Below, piece after piece: positions 98 through 35,985 of a stretch of 46,721 nucleotides of DNA (position 1 is its first letter; the number at the start of each line of letters is the position of its first letter). Made by a program: the position numbers and the translations under genes. Below the pieces are notes generated by a model. It was given only the letters and a program-made list of their open reading frames with translations. It made no database searches and was not told where the DNA came from. This DNA is from an uncultured bacterium (GTDB lineage Bacteria > Chlamydiota > Chlamydiia > Chlamydiales > SM23-39). Location of the stretch: positions 1 through 46,721 of the forward strand of contig CAYPMA010000001.1 in the NCBI GenBank assembly GCA_964411685.1, given 5' to 3'.

Positions 98-856
98 TTA
101 TTTTCTTATTTCTTCATGATTTTTATCTAGAGCAAGCAATTTTTTTTCGTATGGTAAATTCCAACTTTCAGGATAACAATAAGAAGGAGATAAAACTACA
201 TCAGGTTTATTATTTATTAAATATCTGTTCAGGTGGCTTTCATCATGCCATACTGCAATATAGTCTTTCTTCAAATCCTTTTCAATATTGTCAATATTGG
301 ATTTTAGTAGTTTAATAAAGTTGTCTTTTTTACCGCCGTAGAATCCTCCTGCAAAGTAACATTTGCCTTCTTTTTTTTCCACATATGCAGTAGATTTTTT
401 ATTAGTTTCGTAAGATCCTCTCTTATCAACAAAGCCAGGATGCTGTGTTGCTACTAAGCTTCCGAGTATTTCATCTCCAACAGGAGCCACAAACAACATG
501 TCTGCATCAATTGCAAAAAGATAGTCCATTTTATCGAATAATGATTTGTTTTTATAATATACGTGAAATCGTTTTAATGTATCATTTGGCCATCCAAGCC
601 TTTTTTGAAAAACGGATGTAACATCAGCATTATTTGGGAAATCTTGATCAGTAAAAACAAAAAATGAGACATTATGATTGTTTAAAAAAAACTTTCTTGC
701 AGAGTCTATCATTTTAATAGCGTATTTATCGTATTTCCCAGTTGCCATAACACAAAGGCCAATATTATATTTTTTTAATTGTATAGGTTTTTCGTAAGCA
801 GATACCATTGAGCAAATTGAGAAAAACATAACAAGAAGAAAAGTTTTTTTTATCAT
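98..856 (-). CDS. GT6-family glycosyltransferase (histo-blood-group A/B, alpha-1,3-Gal/GalNAc transferase-like) with N-terminal signal peptide or signal anchor
   Basis: 252-aa ORF. The C-terminal block IAVWHDESHLNRYLINNKPDVVLSPSYCYP matches the recalled vertebrate ABO/alpha3GalT signature AVWHDESHLNKYLL..KVLSPEY. It has a DxD-type motif AIDADM and a donor-pocket-like block CYFAGGFYGG. The N-terminus MIKKTFLLVMFFSICSMVSA/YE is hydrophobic with an AXA-like site. Confidence 0.85.
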   Translation of the reverse strand: MIKKTFLLVMFFSICSMVSAYEKPIQLKKYNIGLCVMATGKYDKYAIKMIDSARKFFLNNHNVSFFVFTDQDFPNNADVTSVFQKRLGWPNDTLKRFHVYYKNKSLFDKMDYLFAIDADMLFVAPVGDEILGSLVATQHPGFVDKRGSYETNKKSTAYVEKKEGKCYFAGGFYGGKKDNFIKLLKSNIDNIEKDLKKDYIAVWHDESHLNRYLINNKPDVVLSPSYCYPESWNLPYEKKLLALDKNHEEIRK

Positions 857-1004
857 AATTAAGTCTCCAGAATTTTTTTTAATTTATCGTAGTATTTTAT
901 AAAATATATTGAAAATAAATTTTTAAAAAATATAGTCTTGAGCTCTTTGTTATCAAAAAATTTGTGTCGTAAATGAATAAGTTTTAAAACAGGAAAAATC
1001 TTAA

Positions 1005-2564
1005 ATGAAGAATAAAATAATCACTTTTCTATATGTGTTTTTAGCTGTAATAATTATTTCAACTTTTACATTTGTAAGAACAAAAAGGATTTCTAAATTA
1101 AAAAGGAATAATGTATCTAGTGATATCATAGGTCAATCTCTATATCATCCAATTTCAAATACATTATATCCTATTTATGAGAACAAAAAATTTGTTGTAA
1201 TAATACCTTCATATAACAACGAAAAATGGTGTGAAAGAAATTTAAGGTCTGTATACGAGCAGGAATACAAAGAGTACAGAGTTATATATATTGATGATAA
1301 TTCAAAAGACAATACCTATGAAAGGGTAAAAAAATATGTAAAAGACCATAATGAGGAACACAGAACTACTCTAATACGAAACAAAAATAACAAAGGAGCA
1401 TTATTAAATCTTTATAATGCTATTCACTCATGTAAGGACGATGAGGTTGTTGTTACACTTGATGGAGATGATTGGTTCCCGCACGAGTTGGTTCTTTTTA
1501 AATTAAACGAATGTTATGCAAATCCCAAGGTTTGGTTAACTTTTGGCCAATATTTGGATTATCCTTCTTATACTAAAGGAATGGGAGGCCCCATATATAA
1601 AAACAGACTCAATGACACAAGAGGTTTTCGACTTCATGAGTGGGTCTCAACGCATTTAAGAACTTTTTATGCAGGCTTATTTAAAAAAATTAAAATAAAA
1701 GATTTTTTCTATAAGGGAACGTTTTTCAAAATGGGATGGGACTATACTTTTATGCTCCCTATGTTGGAAATGTGCCATGATTGTTTTATGTACATTCCTG
1801 AAATAATGTACATCTATAATCGCTGTAATCCAATAAGTGATGACAGATTAAATGTACATCTTCAAAGTCAGTCAGCAATATATGTAAGATTTAAAGATCC
1901 TTATATGCCAATTAACACTCCTCCGTATTTAAAGATTAAGGATAAAAAATATTATGCTGATATATATTATTTTTCAAAAAATCCTGAAAAATTAAAAACC
2001 AGTTTAAATTCCATTGTTGAAAATATAAGCAATTATCATTCAATAAATGTATTTTTTTCATTAAATGAAGATAATGAATATTTATATAAAGAAATACAGG
2101 AGTTGTTTCCTAAAGTTTCTTTTTCATTGATAGATGAAAAGAATTATAAATCAACTATTTGCAATAAAATACTTAAAAATGATTGTTCTTTAAGATGTTC
2201 TTATATTCTTTTCCTTAATGATGAAACAGTAATAGATAAGCCTTATAATTTAAATGATTGTATTACACTGTTGGAAAAAACAAATGCTGATGCATTTTAT
2301 TTGTCCTTGAATAAAAATGCTTTTAAGGAAAATGAAAATAAACTCATGTCATTATGGGATGGTGTAAGCGCTTGGCAATATAATGATAAGGTAAAGCTAG
2401 GACAAAGTGAAATGTTATATAACATGGTTTTAGTAAAGAAAAATGAACTTAAGAATATTGCTAAGAATGAAAATTATAATTCTTTAGATGAATTAAGTAG
2501 TTTATGGAAAAAAAACAGAAACCCAGAAGAAGTAGGTCTGTTTTTTGATTATGAAAACAATTAA
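1005..2564 (+). CDS. Membrane-anchored two-domain glycosyltransferase, N-terminal GT2 (GT-A) domain, tandem paralog A
   Basis: 519 aa. One N-terminal TM helix is followed by a basic stretch (RTKRISKLKRNN). GT2 motifs are VVIIPSYNNEKW, RVIYIDDNSKDNT and TLDGDDWF. It is clearly paralogous to the next two ORFs (WLTFGQYLDYPSY, HLRTFYAGLFKKIKIKDFFY). Confidence 0.8.
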   Translation: MKNKIITFLYVFLAVIIISTFTFVRTKRISKLKRNNVSSDIIGQSLYHPISNTLYPIYENKKFVVIIPSYNNEKWCERNLRSVYEQEYKEYRVIYIDDNSKDNTYERVKKYVKDHNEEHRTTLIRNKNNKGALLNLYNAIHSCKDDEVVVTLDGDDWFPHELVLFKLNECYANPKVWLTFGQYLDYPSYTKGMGGPIYKNRLNDTRGFRLHEWVSTHLRTFYAGLFKKIKIKDFFYKGTFFKMGWDYTFMLPMLEMCHDCFMYIPEIMYIYNRCNPISDDRLNVHLQSQSAIYVRFKDPYMPINTPPYLKIKDKKYYADIYYFSKNPEKLKTSLNSIVENISNYHSINVFFSLNEDNEYLYKEIQELFPKVSFSLIDEKNYKSTICNKILKNDCSLRCSYILFLNDETVIDKPYNLNDCITLLEKTNADAFYLSLNKNAFKENENKLMSLWDGVSAWQYNDKVKLGQSEMLYNMVLVKKNELKNIAKNENYNSLDELSSLWKKNRNPEEVGLFFDYENN

Positions 2565-2578
2565 AAAGAAATAGGCAT

Positions 2579-4138
2579 ATGAAAAAATTATATATTTTAT
2601 TGATTATACCTTTAATTTTGGGATCATTTTTGGCTGGTAAGCAGTTAAAAAAGAGATTAATAAAGATAAAAATGGAAGAGGAATCTATAGTTGATTCTGA
2701 AATGAATCATGAATATTTAAAGCGTGAAGAAAAGCCTTTTGTTGTAATAATTCCATCATATAATAACGTAAAGTGGTACAAAAAAAATATCCAGTCTGTT
2801 TTGGATCAAAAATATTCTAATTATAGAGTTATATATATTGATGATTCTTCTAAAGACGGTACTTATGAGGCTGTAAATCAATATCTAAAGGAAAATGATA
2901 TTGATAACAGGGTTACTCTAATTCATAATGAAAAAAATAATGGAGCCCTTTCAAACTTATATTCTTCTATTCATAGCTGTAAAGATAATGAGATAATAGT
3001 CACTTTGGATGGAGATGACTGGCTTGCTCATGAATTTGTTTTAAAGAGATTAAATGATTATTATTATGATAAAAATGTGTGGCTTACTTATGGACAATAT
3101 TTAGACTATCCTTCATTAGAATGGGGAATGTGTCTTCCAATAAATGGACATATAGAGAAAAAATATGGCATAAGAAAGCATCCCTGGGTTACTTCTCATT
3201 TAAGAACATTTTATGCAGGTCTATTTAAAAAAATAAAAATTGAAGACTTTTTTTATAAAAACAAATTTATGGATATGAGTTGGGATTATGCTTTTATGAT
3301 TCCTATGCTAGAGATGGCAGATAAACATAGAGTATTTGTTAAAGATGTTTTATATATATACAACAGGCTTAATCCAATAAGTGATGATAAAAAAAACATT
3401 CAGCTTCAAATTGAATCTGCTTCTTATGTTCGTAATAAAAAACCATATTTACCATTAGCTTCATTCCCATATGCAAAATATTCTGATTCAAGGGAAATGA
3501 TAGATATTATTATTTCTTCTAAGGATCCATTATCTCTTGCTGTTAGTTTATCTTCCATTTTCGAAAAGGTTGATAATTATCAGGAAATATTTGTTATATA
3601 TAATTCTAATGATGAAATCAGTAAAGATGGTTATGCAAAAATAAAAGAACTTTTTCCAAATGTTAATTTTTTAAATCAAGACGAAAATCTATCTTTTATT
3701 TTAAAAGAGACCTATAATACCAGTTCTTATGTATTATTGTTAAAAGATGATTATGTTTTTAGCGATTATTTAGATTTAAATACTTGTATAAAACTACTTC
3801 AAGACAGTTATTCAAAAGTTTTTTCTCTTAAAGATAGTGATGGCCAGAAATTTTCTATTGATGGAAAGGTTAAGATTTATAGTTCAAATATAGAAGATAT
3901 TTTTGATGGTAATATTGTCAAGAAAGAGCTCTTTTCAAATATGTCCAATCCTTTTTCAGGTGAATCTAAAAACAATATTGTTTTGTTTTTTGATACTTAT
4001 AATATTCAAAAGTTGAACTTAGTAAACGATGAGAATATTAATTCTCAAATAGCAAAATGGGAAGAAAAGTTTAATTTAAATTTAGATGATCTAAAAAAAA
4101 TAAATTTCAATACTAATTGTGAAATTACAAATAGGTGA
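2579..4138 (+). CDS. Membrane-anchored two-domain glycosyltransferase, GT2 N-terminal domain, tandem paralog B
   Basis: 519 aa with the same architecture and motifs (VVIIPSYNNVKW, RVIYIDDSSKDGT, TLDGDDWL, HLRTFYAGLFKKIKIEDFFY). It starts 14 nt after paralog A. Confidence 0.8.
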   Translation: MKKLYILLIIPLILGSFLAGKQLKKRLIKIKMEEESIVDSEMNHEYLKREEKPFVVIIPSYNNVKWYKKNIQSVLDQKYSNYRVIYIDDSSKDGTYEAVNQYLKENDIDNRVTLIHNEKNNGALSNLYSSIHSCKDNEIIVTLDGDDWLAHEFVLKRLNDYYYDKNVWLTYGQYLDYPSLEWGMCLPINGHIEKKYGIRKHPWVTSHLRTFYAGLFKKIKIEDFFYKNKFMDMSWDYAFMIPMLEMADKHRVFVKDVLYIYNRLNPISDDKKNIQLQIESASYVRNKKPYLPLASFPYAKYSDSREMIDIIISSKDPLSLAVSLSSIFEKVDNYQEIFVIYNSNDEISKDGYAKIKELFPNVNFLNQDENLSFILKETYNTSSYVLLLKDDYVFSDYLDLNTCIKLLQDSYSKVFSLKDSDGQKFSIDGKVKIYSSNIEDIFDGNIVKKELFSNMSNPFSGESKNNIVLFFDTYNIQKLNLVNDENINSQIAKWEEKFNLNLDDLKKINFNTNCEITNR

Positions 4139-5865
4139 TGGGTAATGTCATGAAAAAAATATTATATTTGTCAGTTATATTAATGGTTGGGATTTCAGTA
4201 ATTAGTGGATATAAATATGATTCTTTTAAAAAAAGAAAGGTAAAAGAAAAGCTAGGGCAGTATGAATCTTTTCCTGTAACCGAGAACAAAGAATTTGTAA
4301 TCATTATTCCTTCATACAATAACGAAGAATGGTATGAAAAGAACCTATATTCAGTTATAAATCAGGACTATGATAATTACAGGGTAATATATATTGATGA
4401 TGCATCAAAGGATGATACTTATGACAAGGTAAATGGTTATTTACAAAAACATGATGAGAAAAATAGAGTTACTTTGATTCATAATGAAAAAAATGTTGGA
4501 GCCTTGGCAAATCTATATAAAGCTATTCATGGCTGTAAAGATAATGAAATAATAGTTACTGTCGATGGTGATGATTGGCTTGCCCATGAATATGTATTAA
4601 CAAAGTTAAATGAGTCATATGCAAATCCTAATGTATGGCTTACCTATGGACAATATAGGGATTATCCTAGTTATGATCAGGGTTTATGTAGGTCGTATCA
4701 TACAAAATCATTAATTAAAAAAGGCGGATTTCGCAATCATTCATGGGAAGCTTCCCACCTACGAACTTTCTATTCCGCTTTATTTAAAAAAATAAAAATT
4801 GAAGACTTTTTTTATGAAGGTCAGTTTCTTCCTATGAGCTGGGACCTTGCCTTTATGATACCTATGATGGAGATGGCATATGATAATATACAATTCATAA
4901 AAAATTACCTCTATATTTACAATAGGACTAATCCAATATCTGATGGAAATAAAAATAGAGAATTTCAAATTAAGTGCGATCAATATGTAAGAAGTTTAAA
5001 AAAATATGAAAGAATAGATACTCTTTTTGAGAAAACAAATATTAAATCTAATAAAGCAGATTTAGTCATTTTTTCATTTGACAGGCCCATGCAGTTATAT
5101 GCTTGTATTGAATCCATTAATAAGTATATTTCCGGTCTGGGTAATATTTCAGTTATATATCGAATTAGCAATGTCAAATATGAAGATGGATATAATGAGG
5201 TTAAAAAATCATTTCCTGAAGTTAATTATGTTAAGCAAAATGAAAAGCCTTTAGATGATTTTAAGCCTTTGTTAATTCAGGAGACATTTTCTTCTAAGAA
5301 TAATCACATATTATTTTGTGTAGATGATGATATAGTAAAAGATTATATTAATTTATCTAAGTGCATTGAAGCATTAGAAAATACAAATGCTTATGGTTTC
5401 TATTTAAAATTAGGTACTCATGTTGACTATTGTTACACTATGGACTCAAGACAAAGAATTCCTAGGATGTATCCTGTTTTTGATGATGTATATGCTTGGC
5501 AGTTTAGAGATGGTGAATATGACTGGAAATATCCAAACACAGTAGATATGACCTTATATAGAAAGTCAGATATTGAAAAGAATTTAAGAAAATTAATTTA
5601 TGTTAATCCAAATTCATTTGAAGGAAATTGGGCTTCAAAGGCTAATTACAATAAAATTGGGCTTTGTTTTTCGCAGTCAAAGATTATTAATATTCCAATG
5701 AATTTGGTTAATACTGAATGTAAAAATAGACATATGAATTTCAACAGCGCTGAACAACTTTTAGATAAATTTAATGAAGGATATAAAATTGATATTTCAA
5801 AATTTGATAAAGTTGAAAATAAGTCCGTTCATGTTGAATATATTCCAGAATTTATTATAAGATAA
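4135..5865 (+). CDS. Membrane-anchored two-domain glycosyltransferase, GT2 N-terminal domain plus best-preserved C-terminal GT-A-like domain, tandem paralog C
   Basis: 576 aa. Motifs are VIIIPSYNNEEW, RVIYIDDASKDDT and TVDGDDWL. The C-terminal domain has LVIFSFDRPMQLYA and a DxD-like LFCVDDDIV. Start choice is GTG 4135, ATG 4138 (1-nt overlap with the upstream TGA) or ATG 4150 (AGGTGA lies upstream). Confidence 0.8.
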   Translation: MMGNVMKKILYLSVILMVGISVISGYKYDSFKKRKVKEKLGQYESFPVTENKEFVIIIPSYNNEEWYEKNLYSVINQDYDNYRVIYIDDASKDDTYDKVNGYLQKHDEKNRVTLIHNEKNVGALANLYKAIHGCKDNEIIVTVDGDDWLAHEYVLTKLNESYANPNVWLTYGQYRDYPSYDQGLCRSYHTKSLIKKGGFRNHSWEASHLRTFYSALFKKIKIEDFFYEGQFLPMSWDLAFMIPMMEMAYDNIQFIKNYLYIYNRTNPISDGNKNREFQIKCDQYVRSLKKYERIDTLFEKTNIKSNKADLVIFSFDRPMQLYACIESINKYISGLGNISVIYRISNVKYEDGYNEVKKSFPEVNYVKQNEKPLDDFKPLLIQETFSSKNNHILFCVDDDIVKDYINLSKCIEALENTNAYGFYLKLGTHVDYCYTMDSRQRIPRMYPVFDDVYAWQFRDGEYDWKYPNTVDMTLYRKSDIEKNLRKLIYVNPNSFEGNWASKANYNKIGLCFSQSKIINIPMNLVNTECKNRHMNFNSAEQLLDKFNEGYKIDISKFDKVENKSVHVEYIPEFIIR

Positions 5866-5869
5866 ATTC

Positions 5870-6931
5870 ATGAAAATAACCTGTTTATTTGTTTTTTCTA
5901 TTATATTTGTCTCAAATATCTTTTCCAATAATTCATTTGTACATGCGGATTTTGAATATCTATTAGGAAAAAATACTATTACATGGAAACATATACAAAC
6001 AAAAGATGATGCTGACCAGCTATCTTTCTATAAGAGCTTATATGAAAAAAATAAGTTAGAACAGTTCTCAGATTCTCAGAATTATAAGATTCCAAAAATT
6101 GTGCATTTTATTTGGATAGGACCTAAAAATTTTCCAAGAGAATCAATTAAGAATGTAAGAACCTGGATGGCTAATCATCCTGATTGGGAGTTTATTTTCT
6201 GGACAGATAGAGATAGACCTGCGCCATGTAATGGAATGAGAGTTAAATTTATTAAGGACTTAAAATTTAATAAATTGCAACACATATATGAGTCTGCAAC
6301 AAATTGGAGCCAAAAAGCGGATATAATTACATATGAAATATTATATAATTATGGGGGAATATATTCAGATCATGATGCAAATAGTTTGAAGTCTTTTGAT
6401 AAATTGAATAAAGCATATGATTTTTATTCCTGTTTAGAACTTCCTCAAGAAAGGATTGGAAAGTTTACTTTGGCGATAGGGCATGGGCTGATGGGAGCAA
6501 AAAAACACCATCCTGTAATAAAAAAAACCATTGATATTCTCATGCTAAGATGGGAAGACGTTAAATCTAAATATCCTGAAGATACTGAAGATCATAAAAT
6601 AAAAAGAATTATGGAAGGGTCTTATATAGCACTTACGTATGCAGCTCAAACTGAATTACAAAAAGATGGAAATGTTGATATAGTTTTTCCAGCAAGTTAC
6701 TTTTTTGCCAATATGGGACTTACTCCAATTTATTCTAAGCATTTTTTTGCAAGCACTTGGATCGAGAGCAAAAATAACAATGACTATCATAATTATATAA
6801 GGAATGAATTGGGTTTTATTATAAAGAAGATAAATAGGCTATCTGCTCTTCAATATTTATTAATGGGTATAATGTTTATTATGTTGAGCTCAATATTAGT
6901 TTCCATAATTAAAAAGAGAAAAACTACATGA
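5870..6931 (+). CDS. GT32-type / DXD sugar-binding-region glycosyltransferase with signal peptide and C-terminal TM anchor
   Basis: 353 aa. IPKIVHFIWIGPKNFP and YGGIYSDHDAN match the Gly_transf_sug/OCH1-type (and toxin-glucosyltransferase-like) pattern. The N-terminus MKITCLFVFSIIFVSNIFSNNSFVHA/DF is signal-like. The C-terminal hydrophobic helix is followed by KKRKTT. Confidence 0.75.
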   Translation: MKITCLFVFSIIFVSNIFSNNSFVHADFEYLLGKNTITWKHIQTKDDADQLSFYKSLYEKNKLEQFSDSQNYKIPKIVHFIWIGPKNFPRESIKNVRTWMANHPDWEFIFWTDRDRPAPCNGMRVKFIKDLKFNKLQHIYESATNWSQKADIITYEILYNYGGIYSDHDANSLKSFDKLNKAYDFYSCLELPQERIGKFTLAIGHGLMGAKKHHPVIKKTIDILMLRWEDVKSKYPEDTEDHKIKRIMEGSYIALTYAAQTELQKDGNVDIVFPASYFFANMGLTPIYSKHFFASTWIESKNNNDYHNYIRNELGFIIKKINRLSALQYLLMGIMFIMLSSILVSIIKKRKTT

Positions 6932-7950
6932 GGAAATTGATTTTTTTTATTTTAGCATGCTCAGTAATCTTTGCTGAAGAGTTTGATTTTGATTATCTTA
7001 TGGGTAAAAATTCCAATAGTTTCAAATATGTGCAAACTAAAGAGGATTTAGAACGATATGACGCATTTAAATCAATTTATAATAAAAACATTGATAGAAA
7101 AATAATTGATAATTCAATACCAAAAGTTATTCATTTTATCTGGCTTGGGCCTAAAAAGATTTCAAATGAAAGAAAGAGAAACATTAATTCTTTTATTAAA
7201 AAACATCCTAATTGGAAATTTAAATTGTGGACTGATTATTCCAGAAAATTGACAAATAGCAATTTAGAAATATGTTATGTGGACCAGGATAAACTTTTAT
7301 TGTCTGAATTTTATAAAGATACAATTAACTATATTGAAAAAGAAGACTTATTGAGAATGGAGATATTGCTTAAGGAAGGTGGAATATATGTTGATACGTC
7401 TTTATTCTGTTATAAGAATCTAGATGATTTATCTAATGGATATAATTTTTTTGCAGCTCTTTCAATACCTCACGATCCAATATTAAGCTCTTCCATTTTG
7501 GTGTCTAATTCTATAATTGGAACAATTCCTAATCATCCAATATTGCAGCATTGTATTTCATATTTGGAAGATAACTGGAAAAAGGTTGCAACTCAATTCT
7601 CAAGCAATAATGATGAATCATATTTATATAGGGCTGCATATAGGTCATATTACGCATTAAATGATGCTATATTAAATAAAAACAACATGAATGGTAACAG
7701 GGATGTAATATTGCCTTGTGCATATTTTATTGATATCGACAAGAATAGAGCTGTCTATGCAAAAAACATGAGATTGAACACTTGGATAAAAGTACAGCCA
7801 ACAGAAAAAGATAAGCTTGAAAGAAATGTTAAATATATAAAACTTAAGATTTTCAAGCTTTTTGTAATAAATGGAAGTCTTCTGTTTATTTCTTGTTTTT
7901 TAATTGCTTCTTATTGGTTTTTTACACGATCAAAAAAAGCAGATGTCTGA
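6928..7950 (+). CDS. GT32-type glycosyltransferase paralog with a degenerate DXD motif, signal peptide and C-terminal TM anchor
   Basis: 340 aa. It overlaps the upstream paralog by ATGA. IPKVIHFIWLGPKKIS is conserved, but the DXD position reads GGIYVDTS. The signal-like N-terminus is MRKLIFFILACSVIFA/EE, and the C-terminal TM is followed by TRSKKADV. Confidence 0.7.
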   Translation: MRKLIFFILACSVIFAEEFDFDYLMGKNSNSFKYVQTKEDLERYDAFKSIYNKNIDRKIIDNSIPKVIHFIWLGPKKISNERKRNINSFIKKHPNWKFKLWTDYSRKLTNSNLEICYVDQDKLLLSEFYKDTINYIEKEDLLRMEILLKEGGIYVDTSLFCYKNLDDLSNGYNFFAALSIPHDPILSSSILVSNSIIGTIPNHPILQHCISYLEDNWKKVATQFSSNNDESYLYRAAYRSYYALNDAILNKNNMNGNRDVILPCAYFIDIDKNRAVYAKNMRLNTWIKVQPTEKDKLERNVKYIKLKIFKLFVINGSLLFISCFLIASYWFFTRSKKADV

Positions 7951-8165
7951 TCTAGTGCTGATCTATTTGTTACTATAGTTCCTTTAGGTTTTATGGAAGC
8001 AGTAAATGGTTTAGGAACATAAGTTTTTAAAGGCTCAGCTGCTCTTTTTACAGTGTTAACTTGTACATGTTTTACTTCTTTAGCTTCTTTTTTTAAATTA
8101 TCTAGATCCAGTTGTTGCTTGTTATGATGATTTCCTGTTCCTTCTGACCTTCTTACTTTACTCAT
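7911..8165 (-). CDS. Small hypothetical protein (84 aa, basic)
   Basis: The ORF is preceded by AGAGG about 6 nt upstream of the ATG (minus-strand AAAGAGGTACAATATG). Its 3' end overlaps the convergent GT32 gene by about 40 nt. No recognisable domain. Confidence 0.45.
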   Translation of the reverse strand: MSKVRRSEGTGNHHNKQQLDLDNLKKEAKEVKHVQVNTVKRAAEPLKTYVPKPFTASIKPKGTIVTNRSALDQTSAFFDRVKNQ

Positions 8166-8267
8166 ATTGTACCTCTTTATTATAATTTCACTTTTTAGGG
8201 ATTAAACTTACCCCATCAGTCATTATAGCAAATATTTGAATAATTCCAACAAAATCTTTACAAAAAA

Positions 8268-8296
8268 TTGATAATTTTTTTTTTATTTCTTATAAA
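8268..8296 (+). promoter_or_regulatory. Candidate sigma70-like promoter upstream of aas
   Basis: TTGATA (8268-8273), a 17-nt spacer, then TATAAA (8291-8296), about 95 nt upstream of the aas start. Chance matches are common in AT-rich DNA. Confidence 0.25.
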
Positions 8297-8390
8297 AAAA
8301 ATTTTTTTTGATACAAAAATCAAAGAAAAACAGTGGCTCAAAATACAAACTGAAGTAAAATGAATACTTTTAAATAATATAAAGGGTTTT

Positions 8391-11081
8391 ATGCGATACT
8401 TGTTAATTTCATTGGTATGCTTTATTGGCAGAATTTTGCTTTCCTTAAGATATAAGATAAAAATAAAAGGCAAAGATTTATTAACAAAGGATAATTTGAA
8501 TAAAAAAGGTGGTATTCTTTTTTTACCAAATCACCCAGCACAGATGGATCCAATTATTTTGTCTTTATTATTGTGGCCTAAATTTAAAACGCGTCCAATT
8601 GCTGTTGAATACATGTATAGGCAGCCGGGAATGCATTTTGCAATGAAACAGATCAAAGCAATTTCAATACCTAATCTTGAAACATCATTAAATGAATTGA
8701 AATTACAAAAAGTTAAAGAGGTATTTCAAATTATTGCTGATGGATTAAAGAATAAGGAGAATTTTTTAATTTATCCTTCAGCACGATTAAAACATACAGG
8801 AAAAGAAATATTGGGCGGTTCTTCAGGGACATATTCAATATTAAAAGAATGCCCTGAAGCAAATGTTGTTTTAATAAGGTCTGTAGGACTATGGGGAAGC
8901 AGTTTTTCAAGGGCTATCGAGAAAAAATCTCCTAATTTTGGGAAACAGGCTTTTAATGGGATTAAATATTTATTTTTGAATTTAATCTTTTTTATGCCTA
9001 GAAGAAAAATTGAAATTGAATTTTTGCCAAATCCAGAGGATTTTCCAAATCAGCCGTCTAAACTAGAGTTAAATAGGTATTTAGAAGCTTGGTATAACAA
9101 ATATCCAATGGAAAATAAAGTTGTGGCAACAGAACCTATGAAACTGGTGTCATATACTTTTTGGAAAAAAACATATCCAAAAGTAATAGAAAATAAAGAA
9201 TATAAAGAAGTGTTTAATGAAAACGTTTTTTCTTCTGACATACAAAAAGAAATAGTAAAAGAATTATCTCGTATATCTCATTTTTCAATAAATGAAATAA
9301 ATCCAAAAATGAACTTGGCCTTAGATTTGGGATTAGATTCTTTAGATTTAACAGAATTAATAACATTTTTATCAGTACATTATGAAACTAAGGAAATTCA
9401 TCCGGAAGATATTGAAACTGTAAAAGATTTATTTGAAGTGGCAGAAGGTAAAAAAACAACTAAGAAAAAGCATGAGCCTGCAAGTCAATTTACATGGCCG
9501 AAAGAAGAAAAAAGAATGCCTCCGGACCTTCCAAAGGGGAAAACGATTCAGGATTCGTTTTTTAGAATTTGTGATAAGATGAAGAATTCTTATGCATGTG
9601 CGGATGATTTGGTAGGTTCATTAACTTATAAGAAATTAAAGATTGCTGTTCTCTTATTGGCTGAAGAAGTAAAAAAAATGCCAGGTAAGTATATATCTGT
9701 TCTTCTTCCATCATCTGCCGGTGCTTATATGTTAACCTTTGCAATACTTTTAGCCGGGAAGATTCCTGTTATGCTCAACTGGACATTGGGAAGAAGATTT
9801 TTAGATCATATGATACAGGTAACTAATTCAGAAGTAGTTATTTCTTCTTGGAAGTTCATGGAAAAACTAACAAACGTTGAATTTGGAGATCTTACAAAAA
9901 AGATAGTATTTCTTGAGGACATTAAAAAGAGAATAACCCCATTGAAAAAGGTTAAAGGTCTTCTTTCATCAATGAAATCCTCTAAAAGTTTATTGAAAAA
10001 ACTTAAACTGAATAAAGTTAATGAAGATGATACAGCTGTTATTCTATTTACAAGCGGAACTGAAGCAGAACCAAAAGGTGTTCCGTTAAGTCATAAAAAT
10101 ATTATTTCAAACTTAAGATCGGCTATGCAGTGTATTAATTTGAAAGCTGATGAAATGTTATACGGAATATTACCGCCATTTCATTCATTTGGATTTTCAG
10201 TAACAGGAATTTTTCCAATTCTAGCAGGTATTAGAGTTGTTTATTTTCCTGATCCAACAGATAGCTATGCCCTTGCAGAAGGAATTAAAAGATGGAATAT
10301 AACTATGATTTGTTCTGCTCCAAGCTTTTTAAAAGGCCTTCTTCAGGCTGGAACTAAAGAAGAATTAAAATCTTTGAGGCTCTTAGTAACAGGAGCTGAA
10401 AAAACACCTAATGATTTATATGAGAAAGTTAAATCACTAGGAGGGAATAAGTATTTAATTGAGGGATACGGAATAACTGAATGTTCTCCAATAATATGTT
10501 TGAGCAGAGCTAATTTACCAAGAAAAGGTGTAGGACAGATTATTCCGGAATTTGAAATTTGTACTGTAGACCCTGAAACGCATGAACCGCTAAAAAAAGG
10601 AAAAGAGGGTGAATTATGTGTTATGGGACCTAGTGTTTTTAATGGTTATTTAGGTAATCAGAAAGATCCATTTATAATGATAGATAATAAAAAATGGTAT
10701 TGTACAGGTGATCTGGGTTATGTTGATGATAAGGGATATGTAATATTGTCAGGACGATTAAAAAGATTTACGAAAATTGGCGGCGAAATGATAAGCCTTG
10801 GTGGATTGGAAGAAGCAATTAGTAATTATTTAGTTGAAAAGCATATGATAGAACAGGATGGTCCTCAGGTTGCTGTTTTAGCAAAAGAAAGCGAGGAAAA
10901 TAGAGCTCATTTGATTGTTGTATCAACTGTTGATATAGATAAACATGAAATTAATCAAATGTTGAAAGATACAGGATTTAGCAGAATTGCAAAGATATCA
11001 GACGTAAAACAAATTGATCAGATTCCTCTTACTGGAACTGGTAAAATTGATTATCGTTATCTGCAAGGCTGGATAGAATAA
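8391..11081 (+). CDS. aas: Tri-domain acyltransferase / carrier-protein domain / acyl-ACP synthetase (Aas-like)
   Basis: 896 aa. It has a PlsC-type NHPAQMD (HX4D) motif, a phosphopantetheine-attachment-like LGLDSLDLTELITFL, and adenylation cores LFTSGTEAEPKGV, GYGITE, TGDLG, GRLKRFTKIGGEMIS and PLTGTGKID. Confidence 0.9.
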   Translation: MRYLLISLVCFIGRILLSLRYKIKIKGKDLLTKDNLNKKGGILFLPNHPAQMDPIILSLLLWPKFKTRPIAVEYMYRQPGMHFAMKQIKAISIPNLETSLNELKLQKVKEVFQIIADGLKNKENFLIYPSARLKHTGKEILGGSSGTYSILKECPEANVVLIRSVGLWGSSFSRAIEKKSPNFGKQAFNGIKYLFLNLIFFMPRRKIEIEFLPNPEDFPNQPSKLELNRYLEAWYNKYPMENKVVATEPMKLVSYTFWKKTYPKVIENKEYKEVFNENVFSSDIQKEIVKELSRISHFSINEINPKMNLALDLGLDSLDLTELITFLSVHYETKEIHPEDIETVKDLFEVAEGKKTTKKKHEPASQFTWPKEEKRMPPDLPKGKTIQDSFFRICDKMKNSYACADDLVGSLTYKKLKIAVLLLAEEVKKMPGKYISVLLPSSAGAYMLTFAILLAGKIPVMLNWTLGRRFLDHMIQVTNSEVVISSWKFMEKLTNVEFGDLTKKIVFLEDIKKRITPLKKVKGLLSSMKSSKSLLKKLKLNKVNEDDTAVILFTSGTEAEPKGVPLSHKNIISNLRSAMQCINLKADEMLYGILPPFHSFGFSVTGIFPILAGIRVVYFPDPTDSYALAEGIKRWNITMICSAPSFLKGLLQAGTKEELKSLRLLVTGAEKTPNDLYEKVKSLGGNKYLIEGYGITECSPIICLSRANLPRKGVGQIIPEFEICTVDPETHEPLKKGKEGELCVMGPSVFNGYLGNQKDPFIMIDNKKWYCTGDLGYVDDKGYVILSGRLKRFTKIGGEMISLGGLEEAISNYLVEKHMIEQDGPQVAVLAKESEENRAHLIVVSTVDIDKHEINQMLKDTGFSRIAKISDVKQIDQIPLTGTGKIDYRYLQGWIE

Positions 11082-11101
11082 CAAAAAAAGAGAATGTTAT
11101 T

Positions 11102-12502
11102 ATGAAATTATATAATACTGAATCAAAACAAAAAGAGAATATTTCTACGTCAAAGGATAATCAGATTCGTATTTATACCTGCGGCCCTACAATATATGAC
11201 TATGCTCACATTGGAAATTATAGAACATATGTATTTGAAGACCTGTTAATACGCTCATTGAGATATTTTGGATATGATGTAAAACATGTCATGAATTTGA
11301 CAGACGTTGATGATAAGACGATTAAAGGGGCTAATAAGCATAATATTAAACTAAATGAATATACCGATAAGTTTAAGAAGGCTTTCTTTGAAGATTTAAA
11401 ACAGTTAAATATTAAACCTGCAGATTTTTTCCCGGAAGCTACTCAATACATCCCTCAGATGATAAAGTTAATATCATCTCTAATAGAAAAGGGTTACGCA
11501 TATAAAGGTGATGATAATAGCATATATTTTTCTATTTCAAAATTTCCATCATATGGAAGGCTTTCTCATTTAAAACTTGATGAACTTAAAAAAGGTGCTT
11601 CAAAAAGATCTGTTCATGATGAATATGATAAAGAGAATGCATCTGATTTCGTATTATGGAAAAGTTATAATCAAAAAAGAGATGGTGATATTTTTTGGGA
11701 AAGTCCGTTTGGCAGGGGAAGACCTGGATGGCATATAGAGTGTTCTGCCATGGCGATTGAACTATTGGGAAATACAGTTGATATCCATTGTGGTGGAGTT
11801 GATAATATTTTTCCTCATCATGAAAATGAAATTGCTCAGTCTGAAGCATATACAGGTACACGTTTTGTAAAGCACTGGGCTCATTCACAGCATTTGATTG
11901 TTGATAACAAGAAGATGTCTAAAAGCCTTGGTAATTTTTATACCTTACGTGATTTGTTAGATAAAGGATACACAGGAAGAGAAGTGCGATATATGCTTCT
12001 TCAAACTCATTATCGTATACAGCTGAACTTTACTTTTGAAGAATTACAAGCAGTAAAAAATTCTATTAAAAGATTAAAAGATTTTATAGTCCGCCTTAGA
12101 AATATTAATGATGAAAAAAGCAGTATTATTGTTGAAGAAATAATTGATAACTATAAAAAGAAGTTCGATGAAGGACTTTTAGATGATTTGAATATTTCTG
12201 TTTCATTATCTTCTATCTTTGATTTGATTAGAGAGATAAATACTTATTGTGATGAAGAAAAATTATCAAAATATGATGCTGATAAAGTATTGAGTTTGTT
12301 ACAAGAATTTGATTCAGTGTTAGCTATTCTTCCTTTTGAAAAGGAAGAAGTGCCTGAAGATATTTTAAAAGCTCTTGAAAAACGAAACGAGGCCAGAAAA
12401 GAAAGAAATTTCAATAAGGCGGATGAGTTAAGAGATTATATTACATCAAAAGGCTATGTTATTGAAGATACAAAAGAGGGTTCAATAGTTAAGAGGAAAT
12501 AA
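11102..12502 (+). CDS. cysS: Cysteine--tRNA ligase
   Basis: 466 aa with class I HIGN (AHIGNYRTY) and KMSKS (NKKMSKSLGN) motifs and a typical CysRS N-terminus. Confidence 0.95.
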   Translation: MKLYNTESKQKENISTSKDNQIRIYTCGPTIYDYAHIGNYRTYVFEDLLIRSLRYFGYDVKHVMNLTDVDDKTIKGANKHNIKLNEYTDKFKKAFFEDLKQLNIKPADFFPEATQYIPQMIKLISSLIEKGYAYKGDDNSIYFSISKFPSYGRLSHLKLDELKKGASKRSVHDEYDKENASDFVLWKSYNQKRDGDIFWESPFGRGRPGWHIECSAMAIELLGNTVDIHCGGVDNIFPHHENEIAQSEAYTGTRFVKHWAHSQHLIVDNKKMSKSLGNFYTLRDLLDKGYTGREVRYMLLQTHYRIQLNFTFEELQAVKNSIKRLKDFIVRLRNINDEKSSIIVEEIIDNYKKKFDEGLLDDLNISVSLSSIFDLIREINTYCDEEKLSKYDADKVLSLLQEFDSVLAILPFEKEEVPEDILKALEKRNEARKERNFNKADELRDYITSKGYVIEDTKEGSIVKRK

Positions 12503-12503
12503 A

Positions 12504-12725
12504 ATGGCAAAAACTAAAGAAGAAAAATTTTTAATTAAACTTCATGAAATGAATGATAATCAGAATATTTTTGATGTTGGACATGCTATGGGATTAAATG
12601 ATACAAGCATAAAAACCATTGTGAGGATATTGCTTCAGTCCAATTTTATTAAGAAAGCGGAAGAGAATATAGTTTATCTTACCTCTAATGGACAATCATT
12701 AGTGAACACTTTGATACAAGGTTAG
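12504..12725 (+). CDS. Small hypothetical protein, possibly winged-helix-like
   Basis: 73 aa. It starts 1 nt after the cysS stop with AAGAGGAAATAAAATG upstream. It overlaps the convergent lysS stop by 4 nt. No diagnostic motif. Confidence 0.5.
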   Translation: MAKTKEEKFLIKLHEMNDNQNIFDVGHAMGLNDTSIKTIVRILLQSNFIKKAEENIVYLTSNGQSLVNTLIQG

Positions 12726-14299
12726 TTTTCTTCTTTTCTCATCATTGGGAAATAAATTACGTCCCTAATTGAGCTCGCTGATGTAAACAGCATTACAATC
12801 CTGTCAATACCGGCGCCGAATCCTGAGGCAGTTGGCATGCCTTGACACATGGCTTCTAAAAACTCTTCATCTAAAGGATGAGCCTCTTCATCGCCTTCTT
12901 TTTTGTTTTGTTGCTGCTGTTCAAATAACTCTCTTTGAAATATTGGATCATTTAATTCACTATAAGCATTTACTATCTCAGAGCCTAAAGCAAAGCTCTC
13001 AAATCTTTCAACTAGATGTTCTTTATGATTTTTTGGATCTCTTAGAGATTTACAAAGAGGGGTTGTTTCGATTGGGTGATCAGTAATGTGATGAGGCTGA
13101 ATTAAATGATGTTCAGCAAATTCCTCAAAGATAAATGAAATCATAGTACCTCTTGTAGCTTTTTTTATTTCTTTTGGAGAAATTTTTGTTTTTTCTAGAA
13201 GAATATTTCTCATATCATCATCAGATAATGAATCAATATCAATATCAGCATATTCTTTTATGCTTTCTTTCATGGTAAGTCTTTTCCATGGAGATTTAAA
13301 ATCAAGCACTACAGATTCTGATTCATTTTCTCTTGCAAATCTAACTTTAGTGTCTCCAAATAGTTTTAAAGCAACATTTTCAAATAGATTTTCAATAAAG
13401 CTCATCATCTTATTGTAATCCCAATAAGCAGCATATCCTTCGATCTCTGTAAATTCAGGATTATGAGTCCTGTCAAGGCCTTCATTTCTAAAAACCTTTC
13501 CTAGTTCGTATACTTTTAGAAGTCCTCCTACAAGAAGTTTTTTAAGAGGAATTTCTAGAGATATTCTCAAAAACATATCTTGATGCAATGCATTTAAATG
13601 CGTTTTAAAAGGTTTTGCATTTGCTCCTCCATATAGTGATTGTAAAACAGGAGTTTCAACTTCTAAAAATCCCGCTTCATCCATATATTGCCTGATAATT
13701 TTAATTATTTTACTTCTTAATATAAAAGTATCCTGGACATTTTTATTAGCTATGAGATCAAGCCATCTTTTTCTATATCTCATTTCCTTATCTGCAAGGC
13801 CGCTATGTTTGTCGGGAAGTGGAAGAAGAGACTTGGATAATAAAATTAAAGATTTTACGAAAATTGTTATTTCACCTTTTTGAGTTCTAAATATATTCCC
13901 TTTGATTCCAATGATGTCTCCCAAGTCAATTTTTTTCTCAATGAATTTTATATTTGACAGTTCACTTGTAGGGGAAAATCCTTCAACTTTTGTAATATCC
14001 CTATTACACATAAACTGTATTCTTCCTGTTTCATCCTGTAATTGTCCAAAAGCATTTTTACCCATAGGACGAAAAAGAACTAATCTTCCAGCTGTTATAA
14101 TCTCTTTTGTTTTTCCTTCCTGAGCTTCATCAAAACTGCCAATTTCTTTTTGAGAGAATTCTTCATGTATATCTTTAGGTGTATGTGTGGGTGAATAAGA
14201 GTAAGGGAAAGGGTTAACCTTAAAATCCTTAATTTCTTTTAGTTTTTTCAATCTATTTTGAAATTCTTCTATTTCATAATATTCTGGCTTGTCTGTCAT
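12722..14299 (-). CDS. lysS: Lysine--tRNA ligase, class II
   Basis: 525 aa with an OB-fold N-domain and class II core motifs (KVFRNEGLDRTHNPEFT, GFGAGIDRIVM). Confidence 0.95.
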   Translation of the reverse strand: MTDKPEYYEIEEFQNRLKKLKEIKDFKVNPFPYSYSPTHTPKDIHEEFSQKEIGSFDEAQEGKTKEIITAGRLVLFRPMGKNAFGQLQDETGRIQFMCNRDITKVEGFSPTSELSNIKFIEKKIDLGDIIGIKGNIFRTQKGEITIFVKSLILLSKSLLPLPDKHSGLADKEMRYRKRWLDLIANKNVQDTFILRSKIIKIIRQYMDEAGFLEVETPVLQSLYGGANAKPFKTHLNALHQDMFLRISLEIPLKKLLVGGLLKVYELGKVFRNEGLDRTHNPEFTEIEGYAAYWDYNKMMSFIENLFENVALKLFGDTKVRFARENESESVVLDFKSPWKRLTMKESIKEYADIDIDSLSDDDMRNILLEKTKISPKEIKKATRGTMISFIFEEFAEHHLIQPHHITDHPIETTPLCKSLRDPKNHKEHLVERFESFALGSEIVNAYSELNDPIFQRELFEQQQQNKKEGDEEAHPLDEEFLEAMCQGMPTASGFGAGIDRIVMLFTSASSIRDVIYFPMMRKEEN

Positions 14300-25793: not shown

Positions 25794-26612
25794 ATGTTGT
25801 TTGAGGATAAATATATGGAAAAAAGATTGTTTTTTGGGATGGAAGTAAGTTCTCCATGGCCTTCAAAATATCCCAATGGAAATATAATAAAAGAAAATAA
25901 TAGGCATCTAACGTTATCTTTTTTAGGAAGTATTGATTATGAAATAGTTAATTCAATGTTAGAGGATTTCCCTAAACCTCCATTTGATATTTCTAAGTGC
26001 GGGATTTTTGATAAATGTGTTTTTCTGCCTGAAAAACATCCTAATGTTGTTGCTTGGCATATCGAATGGCTAGATGGAATTGAAATAGAAGGGTATGCAA
26101 AAGAAATTGCAAATTGGATAAAGAATAATAATATTAAGCTGCATAATGAGAACAGAAAGTTTTTATCTCATGTAACTTTATGTAGAAAACCGGATAATGT
26201 TGAAGCATGGGAAAAATCTTTTGTAAGGCTTCCTATGATTACTAAAAACATCAATCTTTATGAGAGTTTAGGTAATTCAAATTACAATGTTCTTTGGAGT
26301 TATAATATTTTAAAATCTTTTGAGGAAATAGAACATACTGCAGATCTTGCCTTTTCTATAAGAGGTAAAAATATATTGGAAATATTTACAAATGCAAAAA
26401 TAGCTTTAAGCTTTAAATTTCCAGAAATAATCAATTATTTTTCAGAAGATGTACCTATTAATTCAATAGAAGATGTAATGGTTTCCTTAAATGACTTAAT
26501 TTCTATAGCTGATCAAAATACAGGTTGTCCTTTTAAAGCTGTAAGTCTTCATGGAGATTTAAAAAAAGATAAACATGATATTTTTTCATGGGAGATGCTT
26601 GTTGATGTATAA
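25794..26612 (+). CDS. Fusion protein: N-terminal 2H phosphoesterase (LigT/ThpR-like, 2',3'-cyclic phosphodiesterase family) plus C-terminal archease
   Basis: 272 aa. Two HxT/Sx motifs have LigT-like spacing (NRHLTLSFLG and LSHVTLCR). The C-terminal ~95 aa begin FEEIEHTADLAFSIRGKNILEIFTNA and end FKAVSLHGD...WEMLVDV, as in archease. The start could be ATG 25815 (MEKRLFFG). Confidence 0.75.
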   Translation: MLFEDKYMEKRLFFGMEVSSPWPSKYPNGNIIKENNRHLTLSFLGSIDYEIVNSMLEDFPKPPFDISKCGIFDKCVFLPEKHPNVVAWHIEWLDGIEIEGYAKEIANWIKNNNIKLHNENRKFLSHVTLCRKPDNVEAWEKSFVRLPMITKNINLYESLGNSNYNVLWSYNILKSFEEIEHTADLAFSIRGKNILEIFTNAKIALSFKFPEIINYFSEDVPINSIEDVMVSLNDLISIADQNTGCPFKAVSLHGDLKKDKHDIFSWEMLVDV

Positions 26613-35415: not shown

Positions 35416-35985
35416 ATGAAATTAGAAGTCGATTGCTCATGGAATAACAAAAAAAATAGAGCCAAACTAATTATTTGTTATAAGTACGTTCCTAAAAATA
35501 TTTTCTTGATGCCGGAGGAAATTATTCGAAAATCCCAAGATTTGTCATTTAACGGCAAACAGATGGGGCCTCCTGCTTTAAAAGAATTAAAAGAAATAAA
35601 AGAAAAGTATCCTAAAAGCCTTTATGCTGCATTTTCATACTATAAATTATTGGATTTCTTTGAGTACGAAGACGAAGCCGAACAGCTCTATAATGAAGTA
35701 ATAAAAGAATTTCCTTCTCAGGTTTTAACTGAATGTTTAAAGGCTAATTTATTTTTAGTAAATCATGAGTATGAAGCATTTAAAAAAATATTTAATAATG
35801 TTGAGGTCCTAAAAGGGTCTTTCCCTAATAGAAAGATGTATTATTTTGAAGAAGTCCTTTTTTTTCATAATCTATGGGCAAAATATTCTTACGATATGAA
35901 AAATGAAGTTCAGCAAAAAAAGCATTTAGCTTTTATACAGCTTATACTTAACACTCTTCAAACATGCACTTTAGCTAATGTTTAA
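35416..35985 (+). CDS. Hypothetical protein
   Basis: 189-aa ORF with no recognisable motif. Its 3' end overlaps the convergent MBL gene by 11 nt. Confidence 0.5.
   Translation: MKLEVDCSWNNKKNRAKLIICYKYVPKNIFLMPEEIIRKSQDLSFNGKQMGPPALKELKEIKEKYPKSLYAAFSYYKLLDFFEYEDEAEQLYNEVIKEFPSQVLTECLKANLFLVNHEYEAFKKIFNNVEVLKGSFPNRKMYYFEEVLFFHNLWAKYSYDMKNEVQQKKHLAFIQLILNTLQTCTLANV

Follow-up and report, generated by a model that had tools for sequence, protein, structure and literature searches.

A glycosyltransferase module conserved across environmental Chlamydiota and predicted, in part, to act outside the cytoplasm

Six consecutive glycosyltransferase (GT) genes lie at the left end of a contig from an uncultured bacterium of the Chlamydiales lineage SM23-39 (GenBank assembly GCA_964411685.1, contig CAYPMA010000001.1), and they raise the question of what these enzymes build, and on which side of the membrane. 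The window that we analysed is the entire 46,721-bp NCBI contig, its left edge being the contig end; it is the sole contig known for the source genome, and its homologs are Chlamydiota. As judged from homology and gene order, the six genes represent, in this lineage, a glycan module that is conserved across environmental Chlamydiota and that has here been relocated and expanded. We propose that the module supplies extracytoplasmic Leloir transferases, possibly fed with donors by the host, an explanation that, taken as a whole, we hold tentatively and rate at a little under an even chance.

The six intact open reading frames (ORFs) fill positions 98–7950 and are tightly packed. The first, GT6, is on the minus strand (98–856; 252 aa; PF03414 at residues 24–251, E = 1.8e-45). 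The other five follow on the plus strand: GT2a (1005–2564; 519 aa; PF00535, 3.8e-26), GT2b (2579–4138; 519 aa; PF00535, 1.6e-22), GT2c (4150–5865; 571 aa; PF00535, 6e-22), GT32a (5870–6931; 353 aa; PF04488, Gly_transf_sug, 9.6e-16) and GT32b (6928–7950; 340 aa; PF04488, 2.3e-13, and PF05704, 2.4e-9). GT2a and GT2b are 42% and 45% identical to GT2c, and the paralogs GT32a and GT32b are 29% identical to each other. Both of the latter lie above the PF04488 cut-off of 23 bits, and weak matches to TcdA_TcdB and Caps_synth also occur; PF12919 covers about 40 residues of each, at 21.5 bits in GT32a and 27.4 bits in GT32b (cut-off 23.6). The family assignments of all six, made in an earlier note on this DNA, are therefore borne out by Pfam. 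The spacings given there hold for the 14-nt gap between GT2a and GT2b, the 4-nt gap between GT2c and GT32a and the ATGA overlap of GT32a with GT32b, but the overlap of GT2b with GT2c hinges on the start codon. The alternative GT2c starts, GTG at 4135 and ATG at 4138 (the 575-aa record P0135), overlap GT2b; the ATG at 4150, backed by an 82%-identical ortholog (P0136), leaves a gap of 11 nt.

No machinery for glycan assembly was found in the 46.7-kb window. As the earlier note had remarked, and as protein family searches and tblastn now confirm, it holds no flippase, polymerase, chain-length regulator, priming transferase or sugar-nucleotide gene; nor is there an ABC exporter, and the Wzy_C, ManC, GT4, GT9 and epimerase proteins of relatives find no tblastn match in it. 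The other genes are of the housekeeping kind (an Aas fusion, CysS, LysS, PriA, FtsY, HtrA, PssA, RtcB, RmuC and others). The GC content of the cluster, 25–30%, is within the 25–35% range of the remaining contig.

A scan of one genome per species yielded 270 relatives. We inspected the best 80 loci for names and mapped the module in the first 83 (L001–L083) by tblastn and ORF clustering, with neighbours identified by Pfam. The meaningful taxon names among the best 80 were all those of environmental chlamydiae (Simkaniaceae, Rhabdochlamydiaceae, Parachlamydiales, Neptunochlamydia); a Chlamydia species label occurred on one of the 80 (L032, a metagenome bin whose title names Chlamydia trachomatis), whereas the named protein matches listed include none. 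A core made of a GT2 protein of the GT2a–c type (GT2x hereafter) and tandem GT32 genes is present in nearly all of the 83 mapped loci. GT32 occurs in 77 of them, usually in tandem, GT2x in 58 and GT6 in about 20. The module usually lies between topA and rpoN, and the recurrent map reads, on the left, epimerase, GT4, ManC and Wzy_C-like genes, then topA on the minus strand, followed by GT6, one or two GT2x and two or three GT32 genes; to the right of GT32 come a gene for a 262-aa HExxH membrane protein, a GT2x gene, rpoN (minus strand), GT9 and uvrD (minus strand). The module is therefore not strain-specific, a point that the earlier note had proposed to check. An island confined to this strain or recently acquired was ruled out by this conservation together with the GC content.

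The window departs from the common map in its position and in its gene content. Its Aas–CysS context is found only in the closest relatives L001, L004 and L138; the module was therefore relocated in this lineage. GT2x is expanded to three copies in the window, in L138 and in L140, the third copy being fused to GT6 in L140. The protein of about 262 aa stands directly downstream of GT32 in 73 of the 83 loci (for example L079, 12075–12863); it has central transmembrane (TM) helices and matches no Pfam family, and HExxH is present in 70 of the 73. It was not found in the window.

The neighbours seen in relatives bear directly on the question of where the enzymes act. Within 10 kb of the module there are GT9 genes in 33 loci, GT4 in 28, ManC in 26, Wzy_C-like genes in 27 (16 + 11) and epimerases in 12, so that the idea of no assembly machinery anywhere is weakened. 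An ordinary pathway on the cytoplasmic face would account for them: the hydrophobic N-termini would be membrane anchors, the cell would use its own sugar nucleotides to make a lipid-linked lipooligosaccharide (LOS) outer core or an O-antigen- or capsule-like glycan, and a Wzy_C-type ligase or polymerase encoded elsewhere would flip and attach it. That the genome is known from one contig also favours such a pathway. Against it, TopA lies between the module and the ManC, GT4 and Wzy_C genes. We regard this alternative as unlikely, yet as one that has to be weighed against each of the observations below.

The left flank, which is cut off in the window, was inferred from L138, in which GT2c is 82% identical, GT6 85% and GT32b 76%, and in which the gene order from GT6 to PriA is that of the window. 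Five further genes, all with signal-peptide-like starts, lie to the left of GT6 in L138. They encode a protein of 262 aa with a weak likeness to Methyltransf_24, one of 290 aa that has a D-S-D motif and no Pfam match, a NodZ-like fucosyltransferase (PF05830, 1.2e-8) and two FkbM-type methyltransferases. Over the 4.7 kb on that side of GT6, L138 has no wzx, wzy, ABC system, priming transferase, ligase or sugar-nucleotide gene. The cluster does extend leftward, as had been suspected, and it does so by five signal-bearing tailoring enzymes, not by assembly machinery. The earlier note held that its reading would fall if the genes were conserved beside LOS core genes in all relatives, or if the flank encoded a standard wzx/wzy or ABC-type pathway; it is weakened in part, given the Wzy_C-like, ManC, GT4 and GT9 genes of relatives, but the window and the L138 flank carry neither wzx nor wzy.

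All six proteins of the cluster begin with a hydrophobic segment, and in GT6, GT32a and GT32b it resembles a cleavable signal. The earlier count of three signal peptides among the six stands for these three, whose signals are kept in homologs, but it passes over the hydrophobic starts of the others. Signal- or TM-like starts are found in only 10 of the 29 proteins encoded elsewhere in the window. As controls in the related loci, TopA, RpoN, UvrD, GT4 and ManC scored 0–2 for an N-terminal segment and 0 for a lipobox.

In GT6, residues 1–20 (797–856, minus strand, as are the other features of this gene) are signal-peptide-like (...MVSA/YEK). The best match by sequence in the PDB is BoGT6a of Bacteroides ovatus (4ayj, 5e-51, residues 31–248), the human GTA and GTB enzymes following at about 1e-35; because the BoGT6a alignment starts at residue 31, residues 1–30 are an extension. 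The D-A-D at residues 117–119 (500–508) and the catalytic HDES at residues 204–207 (236–247) align to the NAN and WHDES of BoGT6a. GT6 matches the CAZy GT6 profile and carries both the metal-binding DXD of the metal-dependent clade and the catalytic Glu in HDES. BoGT6a (PDB 4AYJ/4AYL) shares the HDES, but it has N-A-N in place of D-x-D, is metal-independent and begins at the catalytic domain, with no signal. A C-terminal membrane-binding domain has been described for the bacterial clade of BoGT6a, and the chlamydial type lacks it (PMC3516806).

The N-terminal extension of GT6 is conserved. It is signal-like in 104 of the 108 closest database homologs (median 27 aa ahead of the conserved start of the catalytic domain) and in all 14 full-length chlamydial GT6 proteins of the related loci; four GT6 copies have a lipobox. 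In more distant GT6 genes, which lie on phage-like contigs, the catalytic domain comes first, with no extension ahead of it; the export signal is therefore a derived trait of the chlamydia-type clade and has been retained there. If the N-termini were mere anchors of a cytoplasmic-face pathway, these phage-borne homologs without any extension would be left unexplained, and so would the lipobox Cys of several GT6 proteins. A metagenome scan with GT6 gave nothing closer than 64%, and no Parachlamydia-named match occurred among the best 120 hits to it.

The GT32-like proteins carry topological signals at both ends. GT32a has signal-like residues 1–26 (5870–5947), a C-terminal TM segment (6854–6910) and a KKRKTT tail (6911–6928); GT32b has signal-like residues 1–16 (6928–6975), a TM segment at 7858–7923 and the basic tail TRSKKADV (7924–7947). 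The same pair of hydrophobic segments, N-terminal and C-terminal, occurs in 90 of 110 full-length GT32 database homologs. Among the 168 GT32 proteins of the related loci, 150 have the N-terminal segment, 47 a lipobox-like motif and 156 the C-terminal TM segment, with a median of four K/R in the last 12 residues. In alignment A1 the lipobox Cys, within L-[AS]-[GA]-C, is aligned across an entire clade of the GT32 proteins. The basic n-region, the acidic residues past the h-region and the basic C-terminal tail together predict a catalytic domain outside and a tail inside; the type I topology that had been put forward for both proteins is thereby supported. On a cytoplasmic-face pathway, the basic N-termini and the K/R-rich tails would lie outside and violate the positive-inside rule at both ends, and neither the clade-wide lipobox Cys nor the (−3, −1) sites of small residues with acidic ones behind them would be explained. 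To judge by their C-terminal anchor and lipoboxes, the GT32-like proteins stay on the bacterial inner membrane.

The GT2x proteins present a less consistent picture. PF00535 covers only the N-terminal half of GT2a, GT2b and GT2c, with DGDD in all three (1461–1472, 3008–3019 and 4564–4575 respectively). The second domain has no match in Pfam or PHROGs, and it is strongly conserved (FS[FY]DRP.QLYA, VDD). The AlphaFold model of GT2c (mean predicted local distance difference test score, pLDDT, 90.7) shows a long N-terminal helix and then two GT-A domains, and its best whole-chain Foldseek matches are the Pasteurella heparosan synthase PmHS2 (8vh8, 2.6e-19) and the Escherichia coli chondroitin polymerase K4CP (2z87, 1e-12), with 540–580 columns aligned; it is on this whole-chain model and search that the GT-A nature of the second domain rests. 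In GT2c the second domain is complete from about 5035 onwards, with FSFDRPMQL at 5056–5097 and VDDD at 5320–5331. In GT2a it is diverged and truncated (NDET at 2217–2228), and in GT2b, otherwise of GT2a-like architecture, it has internal deletions (KDDY at 3743–3754). Of the three two-domain paralogs described in the earlier note, GT2c is the only one whose two GT-A domains are complete; in GT2a and GT2b the second is degenerate or truncated. L001 encodes a 49%-identical ortholog of GT2c, and in L002 the corresponding protein retains only the second domain intact.

As PmHS2 and K4CP also have two domains, the structural match suggests a single GT2c protein with two transferase activities. These enzymes are soluble or peripheral cytoplasmic proteins coupled to ABC capsule exporters, and the likeness in fold favours a cytoplasmic-face pathway. 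Against a close parallel, the TM-score is only about 0.3, the orientation of the domains differs and GT2x has an N-terminal helix or signal; neither the window nor the L138 flank encodes an ABC (KpsMT) capsule exporter. Polymerase activity of GT2c would be an analogy at the level of fold only. A heparan-sulfate-like glycan has reportedly been seen in chlamydiae in old studies; to link it to GT2c through this fold-level match would be speculation, and we set the idea aside.

The orientation of GT2x in the membrane is where the lines of evidence conflict. Each of the three proteins has a hydrophobic segment of 17–20 aa (1017–1076 in GT2a, where it is followed by a basic linker, and 4159–4209 in GT2c) and then six K/R in 12 aa, and at least four K/R stand right after the helix in the three window proteins and in 53 of 83 homologs. 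Such strongly basic linkers favour the cytoplasmic face. On the other side, the start of 14 GT2c homologs is a short cleavable signal of canonical form, GT2N and GT2C occur in L087 and L088 as separate domains that each have a signal of their own, and P0232 (L140, 3326–5809; 827 aa) is a signal–GT2x–GT6 fusion with no TM segment between the domains; in P0184, described below, GT2x is joined to a signal-bearing methyltransferase. These observations would place GT2x in the same compartment as GT6. The two sets of signs contradict each other, and our explanation includes a mixed variant in which GT2x would make a backbone in the cytoplasm and decoration would follow in the periplasm.

Clusters of related composition were found elsewhere, and they show which enzymes keep company with the module. 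In L088 (1990–18419) there are at least 14 consecutive glycan-related genes, almost all with signal-like starts, comprising stand-alone GT2N and GT2C, GT6, two GT32, GT61, CmcI/Methyltransf_24-like methyltransferases and '290'-family proteins. Of two GDP-mannose 4,6-dehydratases in the set, one is normal and the second has a 16-aa signal-like extension with no alternative start; as a single case, this is suggestive of sugar-nucleotide chemistry outside the cytoplasm. A further fusion, P0184 (757 aa), joins a signal, a methyltransferase and GT2x. The contig L139, from a metagenome-assembled genome of the Babeliales (Dependentiae, obligate intracellular bacteria), carries a related cluster at 1290–14245, with a GT2x that has a cleavable signal, two short GT32-like proteins, a GT10 fucosyltransferase, ManC, Gmd, Fcl and a PMT_2 GT-C enzyme; a small GT2 protein and two proteins with ankyrin repeats are also part of it. 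Four phage-like metagenome contigs (L094, L096, L097 and L124; GC 26–34%), with genes for HNH endonuclease or PhoH on L096 and L097, encode a signal-less split set of GT2N, GT2C and GT6, to which a '290'-family protein is added in L094 and L124. This suggests a mobile glycan cassette common to the phage-like contigs and the chlamydial module.

How might such a set of enzymes work together? We suggest that GT6 and both GT32-like enzymes would be exported via Sec, GT6 as a soluble periplasmic protein (a lipoprotein in some relatives) and the GT32-like enzymes as type I inner-membrane proteins with a periplasmic catalytic domain and a cytoplasmic basic tail. The three GT2x proteins, each with two GT-A domains on one N-terminal membrane helix, would lay down a beta-linked backbone, to which GT32a would add alpha-linked sugars. 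In close relatives the NodZ-like fucosyltransferase and the methyltransferases would add fucose and methyl groups. GT6 would then cap the chain with a terminal alpha-linked N-acetylgalactosamine (GalNAc) or galactose (Gal) on an acceptor of fucose (Fuc) linked alpha1,2 to Gal, as PaGT6 does in vitro. What results would be a decorated glycan resembling blood group A, carried by an acceptor in the envelope or the vacuole lumen.

The capping step leans on an enzyme that has been assayed. PaGT6 of Parachlamydia acanthamoebae is in vitro a metal-dependent UDP-GalNAc:Fuc-alpha1,2-Gal alpha-GalNAc transferase, i.e. an A-antigen synthase (PMC3516806, PMC3961637). Like GT6 of the window it is chlamydial, consists of a minimal GT6 catalytic domain (about 27 kDa) and has an intact D-x-D, and it belongs to a DXD-type minimal GT6 clade that includes an enzyme of cyanophage P-SSM2. 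The donor and acceptor of the window GT6 are predicted by analogy with PaGT6, whose activity was shown in vitro. The term 'signal peptide' was not found in the text of PMC3516806. A fucosylated Gal acceptor would fit the fucosyltransferases that accompany the module, a NodZ-like enzyme in L138 and a GT10 enzyme in L139 of the Babeliales.

A pathway of this kind would depend on donors in an unusual place. GT-A Leloir enzymes are cytoplasmic and need sugar nucleotides, and bacteria normally have no activated sugars outside the cytoplasm. Exported GT-A enzymes would therefore require sugar nucleotides there, and exported methyltransferases would require S-adenosylmethionine (SAM). Chlamydiae import host nucleotides and cofactors across the vacuole and the periplasm, and we suppose that host sugar nucleotides could reach the periplasm by way of the vacuole lumen; by analogy, a host origin of the donors is possible, though on balance we doubt it. 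A functional precedent exists in C. trachomatis, in which UDP-glucose reportedly enters the vacuole lumen via host SLC35D2 and is used there by secreted GlgA (PMC4829429), a chlamydial Leloir transferase at work on a host-derived sugar nucleotide outside the bacterial cytoplasm. The parallel is partial: GlgA travels by type 3 secretion, is a GT-B enzyme and makes a storage polymer, whereas the proteins of the module have Sec or lipoprotein signals, are GT-A enzymes with membrane anchoring and would probably make a decorated heteroglycan.

Several points weigh against this extracytoplasmic explanation. We found no transporter that would bring sugar nucleotides to the periplasm, nor any other source of them there. 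The ManC, GT4, epimerase and Wzy_C-like genes beside the module in relatives are signal-less, and they also fit a conventional lipid-linked pathway; with a single contig known for the source genome, assembly genes may lie elsewhere in that genome. The evidence on topology consists of our own hydropathy, charge and motif counts and of conservation across homologs, and the hydropathy measure gives false positives, flagging GT9 in 25 of 33 cases and some epimerases owing to a hydrophobic N-terminal Rossmann strand. The basic linkers of GT2x would, by the positive-inside rule, put its catalytic domains in the cytoplasm. GT32b may be inactive or altered, the second Asp of its DXD being missing. In our judgement the lipobox, the charge pattern and the contrast between extension and core outweigh the raw hydropathy counts.

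The nature of the GT32-like enzymes brings in another possibility. D-H-D of GT32a (D167-H168-D169; 6368–6376) contains an invariant D167 and nearly invariant H168 and D169 in alignment A1, and among the matches listed GT32a has 158 database homologs, nearly all of about 350 aa, the named ones being chlamydial. Its AlphaFold model (pLDDT 91.7) matches YeGT, SetA and PaTox (5e-12 to 1e-10) and then Och1 (9n3s, 3e-7) in Foldseek, and on that basis GT32a is predicted to be a retaining-type GT-A enzyme nearest to these proteins. YeGT of Yersinia, SetA of Legionella and PaTox-G of Photorhabdus, which are GT44-related, share its GT-A fold and DXD and are its best PDB matches by sequence (1e-6). The likeness to fungal Och1, an alpha-1,6-mannosyltransferase, lies in the DXD region of PF04488, the fold and a predicted non-cytosolic catalytic domain, with a weak sequence match (E = 0.18). 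Golgi GT32 enzymes are type II proteins, held by an N-terminal anchor with the catalytic domain facing a non-cytosolic compartment, whereas the GT32-like proteins are predicted to be type I, with a cleaved signal or lipid anchor and a C-terminal TM segment. To call GT6 and GT32 eukaryotic-type, as the earlier note did, was an overstatement: the nearest GT6 structure is bacterial and its clade also occurs on phage-like contigs, and the structures nearest to GT32a are those of bacterial toxin and effector transferases, ahead of Och1.

These structural neighbours, together with the large clostridial toxin domains, all target the host, and they favour a view close to that of the note, namely that the proteins are effectors secreted by Sec and type II secretion which glycosylate host or vacuole glycoconjugates, or proteins, with host donors. 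Neither GT6 nor the enzymes of the L138 flank have a membrane anchor in addition to their signal, which points the same way, as does the position of the related cluster of the Babeliales, an intracellular lineage, next to ankyrin-repeat proteins. YeGT, SetA and PaTox-G are effectors or toxin domains that act on host proteins, and the TM-scores to them are only 0.4–0.57; the GT32-like proteins differ in that they have a signal of the Sec or lipoprotein kind, are anchored in the membrane at the C-terminus and occur as tandem paralogs within a multi-transferase cluster. The C-terminal TM segment with basic tail (156 of 168) and the lipobox-like motif (47) would both retain the protein on the inner membrane, and signal and anchor together argue against delivery to the host cytosol. 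A multi-enzyme set for backbone, alpha-capping, fucose and methylation would moreover suit stepwise building of a glycan, unlike single-target toxins. We therefore consider secreted effectors improbable, while action on host glycoconjugates is possible.

In GT32b the DXD position reads D-T-S (7393–7401). The second Asp is lost only in this protein and in its L138 ortholog (11611–12639); in L001 and L002 the second paralog still has D-x-D. The change may mark a lineage-specific pseudo-enzyme or an altered use of metal. Together with the degenerate second domains of GT2a and GT2b and the signal-less GT6, GT2N, GT2C and '290' copies on phage-like contigs, it could be taken to mean that the genes, acquired from a phage, a giant virus or a eukaryotic host, are decaying or non-functional and lack any coherent function. 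We find this barely credible, since the six ORFs are intact and tightly packed, their order is kept in L138 at 76–85% protein identity, the catalytic motifs of GT6, GT2a–c and GT32a are intact, the module is conserved across chlamydial families and its GC content is not atypical.

Loci for O-antigen, LOS or capsule that depend on Wzx/Wzy or ABC systems resemble the module in their runs of glycosyltransferase genes and, in relatives, in the Wzy_C-like, ManC, GT4 and GT9 genes nearby. They differ in that the priming transferase, flippase, polymerase, chain-length regulator and ABC exporter are absent from the window and from the L138 left flank, and in that their transferases normally have no signal. 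In the literature we found no description of the cluster, of its phylum-wide conservation or of its export signals, but only the papers on PaGT6 and on GlgA and SLC35D2. Each enzyme family is already known, and PaGT6 has been assayed; what would be new is the prediction of a bacterial glycan locus with extracytoplasmic Leloir enzymes. To our knowledge, the glycosyltransferases with which bacteria work outside the cytoplasm are GT-C enzymes with lipid-linked donors. If the explanation is right, GT-A enzymes with export signals, present as a set throughout the phylum, would violate the rule that assigns GT-C to the outside and GT-A to the cytoplasm, and could be understood only in an organism surrounded by the metabolites of its host. 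The metabolically active vacuole lumen of C. trachomatis (PMC4829429) would then also be extended to complex glycans and to the greater part of the phylum, and environmental chlamydiae would be expected to have an as yet undescribed glycan, in the envelope or the lumen, with a bearing on host recognition; the activity of PaGT6 raises the possibility of histo-blood-group-like mimicry. If the predicted topology is wrong, the cluster would be a conserved LOS- or O-antigen-like glycan locus.

A wider form of the proposal would give environmental Chlamydiae, and possibly Babeliales, a Golgi-like extracytoplasmic Leloir pathway. The toolkit exported to the periplasm or vacuole lumen would comprise GT2, GT6, GT32-like, NodZ-like and GT61 enzymes, SAM-dependent methyltransferases and a GDP-mannose dehydratase paralog, and it would use host sugar nucleotides and SAM on their way into the bacterium to make blood-group-A-like fucosylated, methylated glycans. 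In this full form we think it rather unlikely.

There remain some observations on the window itself. The divergent intergenic region between GT6 and the GT2a–GT32b string (857–1004, 148 nt) contains sigma-70-like matches at 909–936 (plus strand) and 956–929 (minus strand); the promoter scan did no better than shuffles, with 60 sites found and 61 expected, and no terminators were found. An 84-aa basic ORF (7911–8165, minus strand) overlaps the 3′ end of GT32b and has no Pfam match. An 83-aa gene is called at the matching position and strand in L138 (12600–12851, minus strand), and the ORF is a doubtful member of the module.

At the other end of the window, the adenylate kinase (45197–45844, minus strand) has a signal-peptide-like N-terminal extension, MRLKIICVFIFFTSTLLSVDH, ahead of its P-loop, PF00406 beginning at residue 24, and it may be an exported nucleotide-handling enzyme. 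Signal-like starts also occur in an M3 oligopeptidase (33219–35282, minus strand; MRNLMKKLFLLLIFSSFLFA...) and in a protein of the metallo-beta-lactamase fold (35975–37006, minus strand; MIKQLLLFILFFCSAYS...). Two tandem paralogous Ser/Thr protein kinases of eukaryotic type are encoded on the minus strand at 38216–39847 and 39972–41624 (543 and 550 aa; PF00069, 2e-14 and 5e-17). Finally, the gene for the RNA ligase RtcB overlaps an upstream gene for a 2′,3′-cyclic phosphodiesterase/LigT-like protein (25794–28026, plus strand), the two forming an RNA-repair pair.

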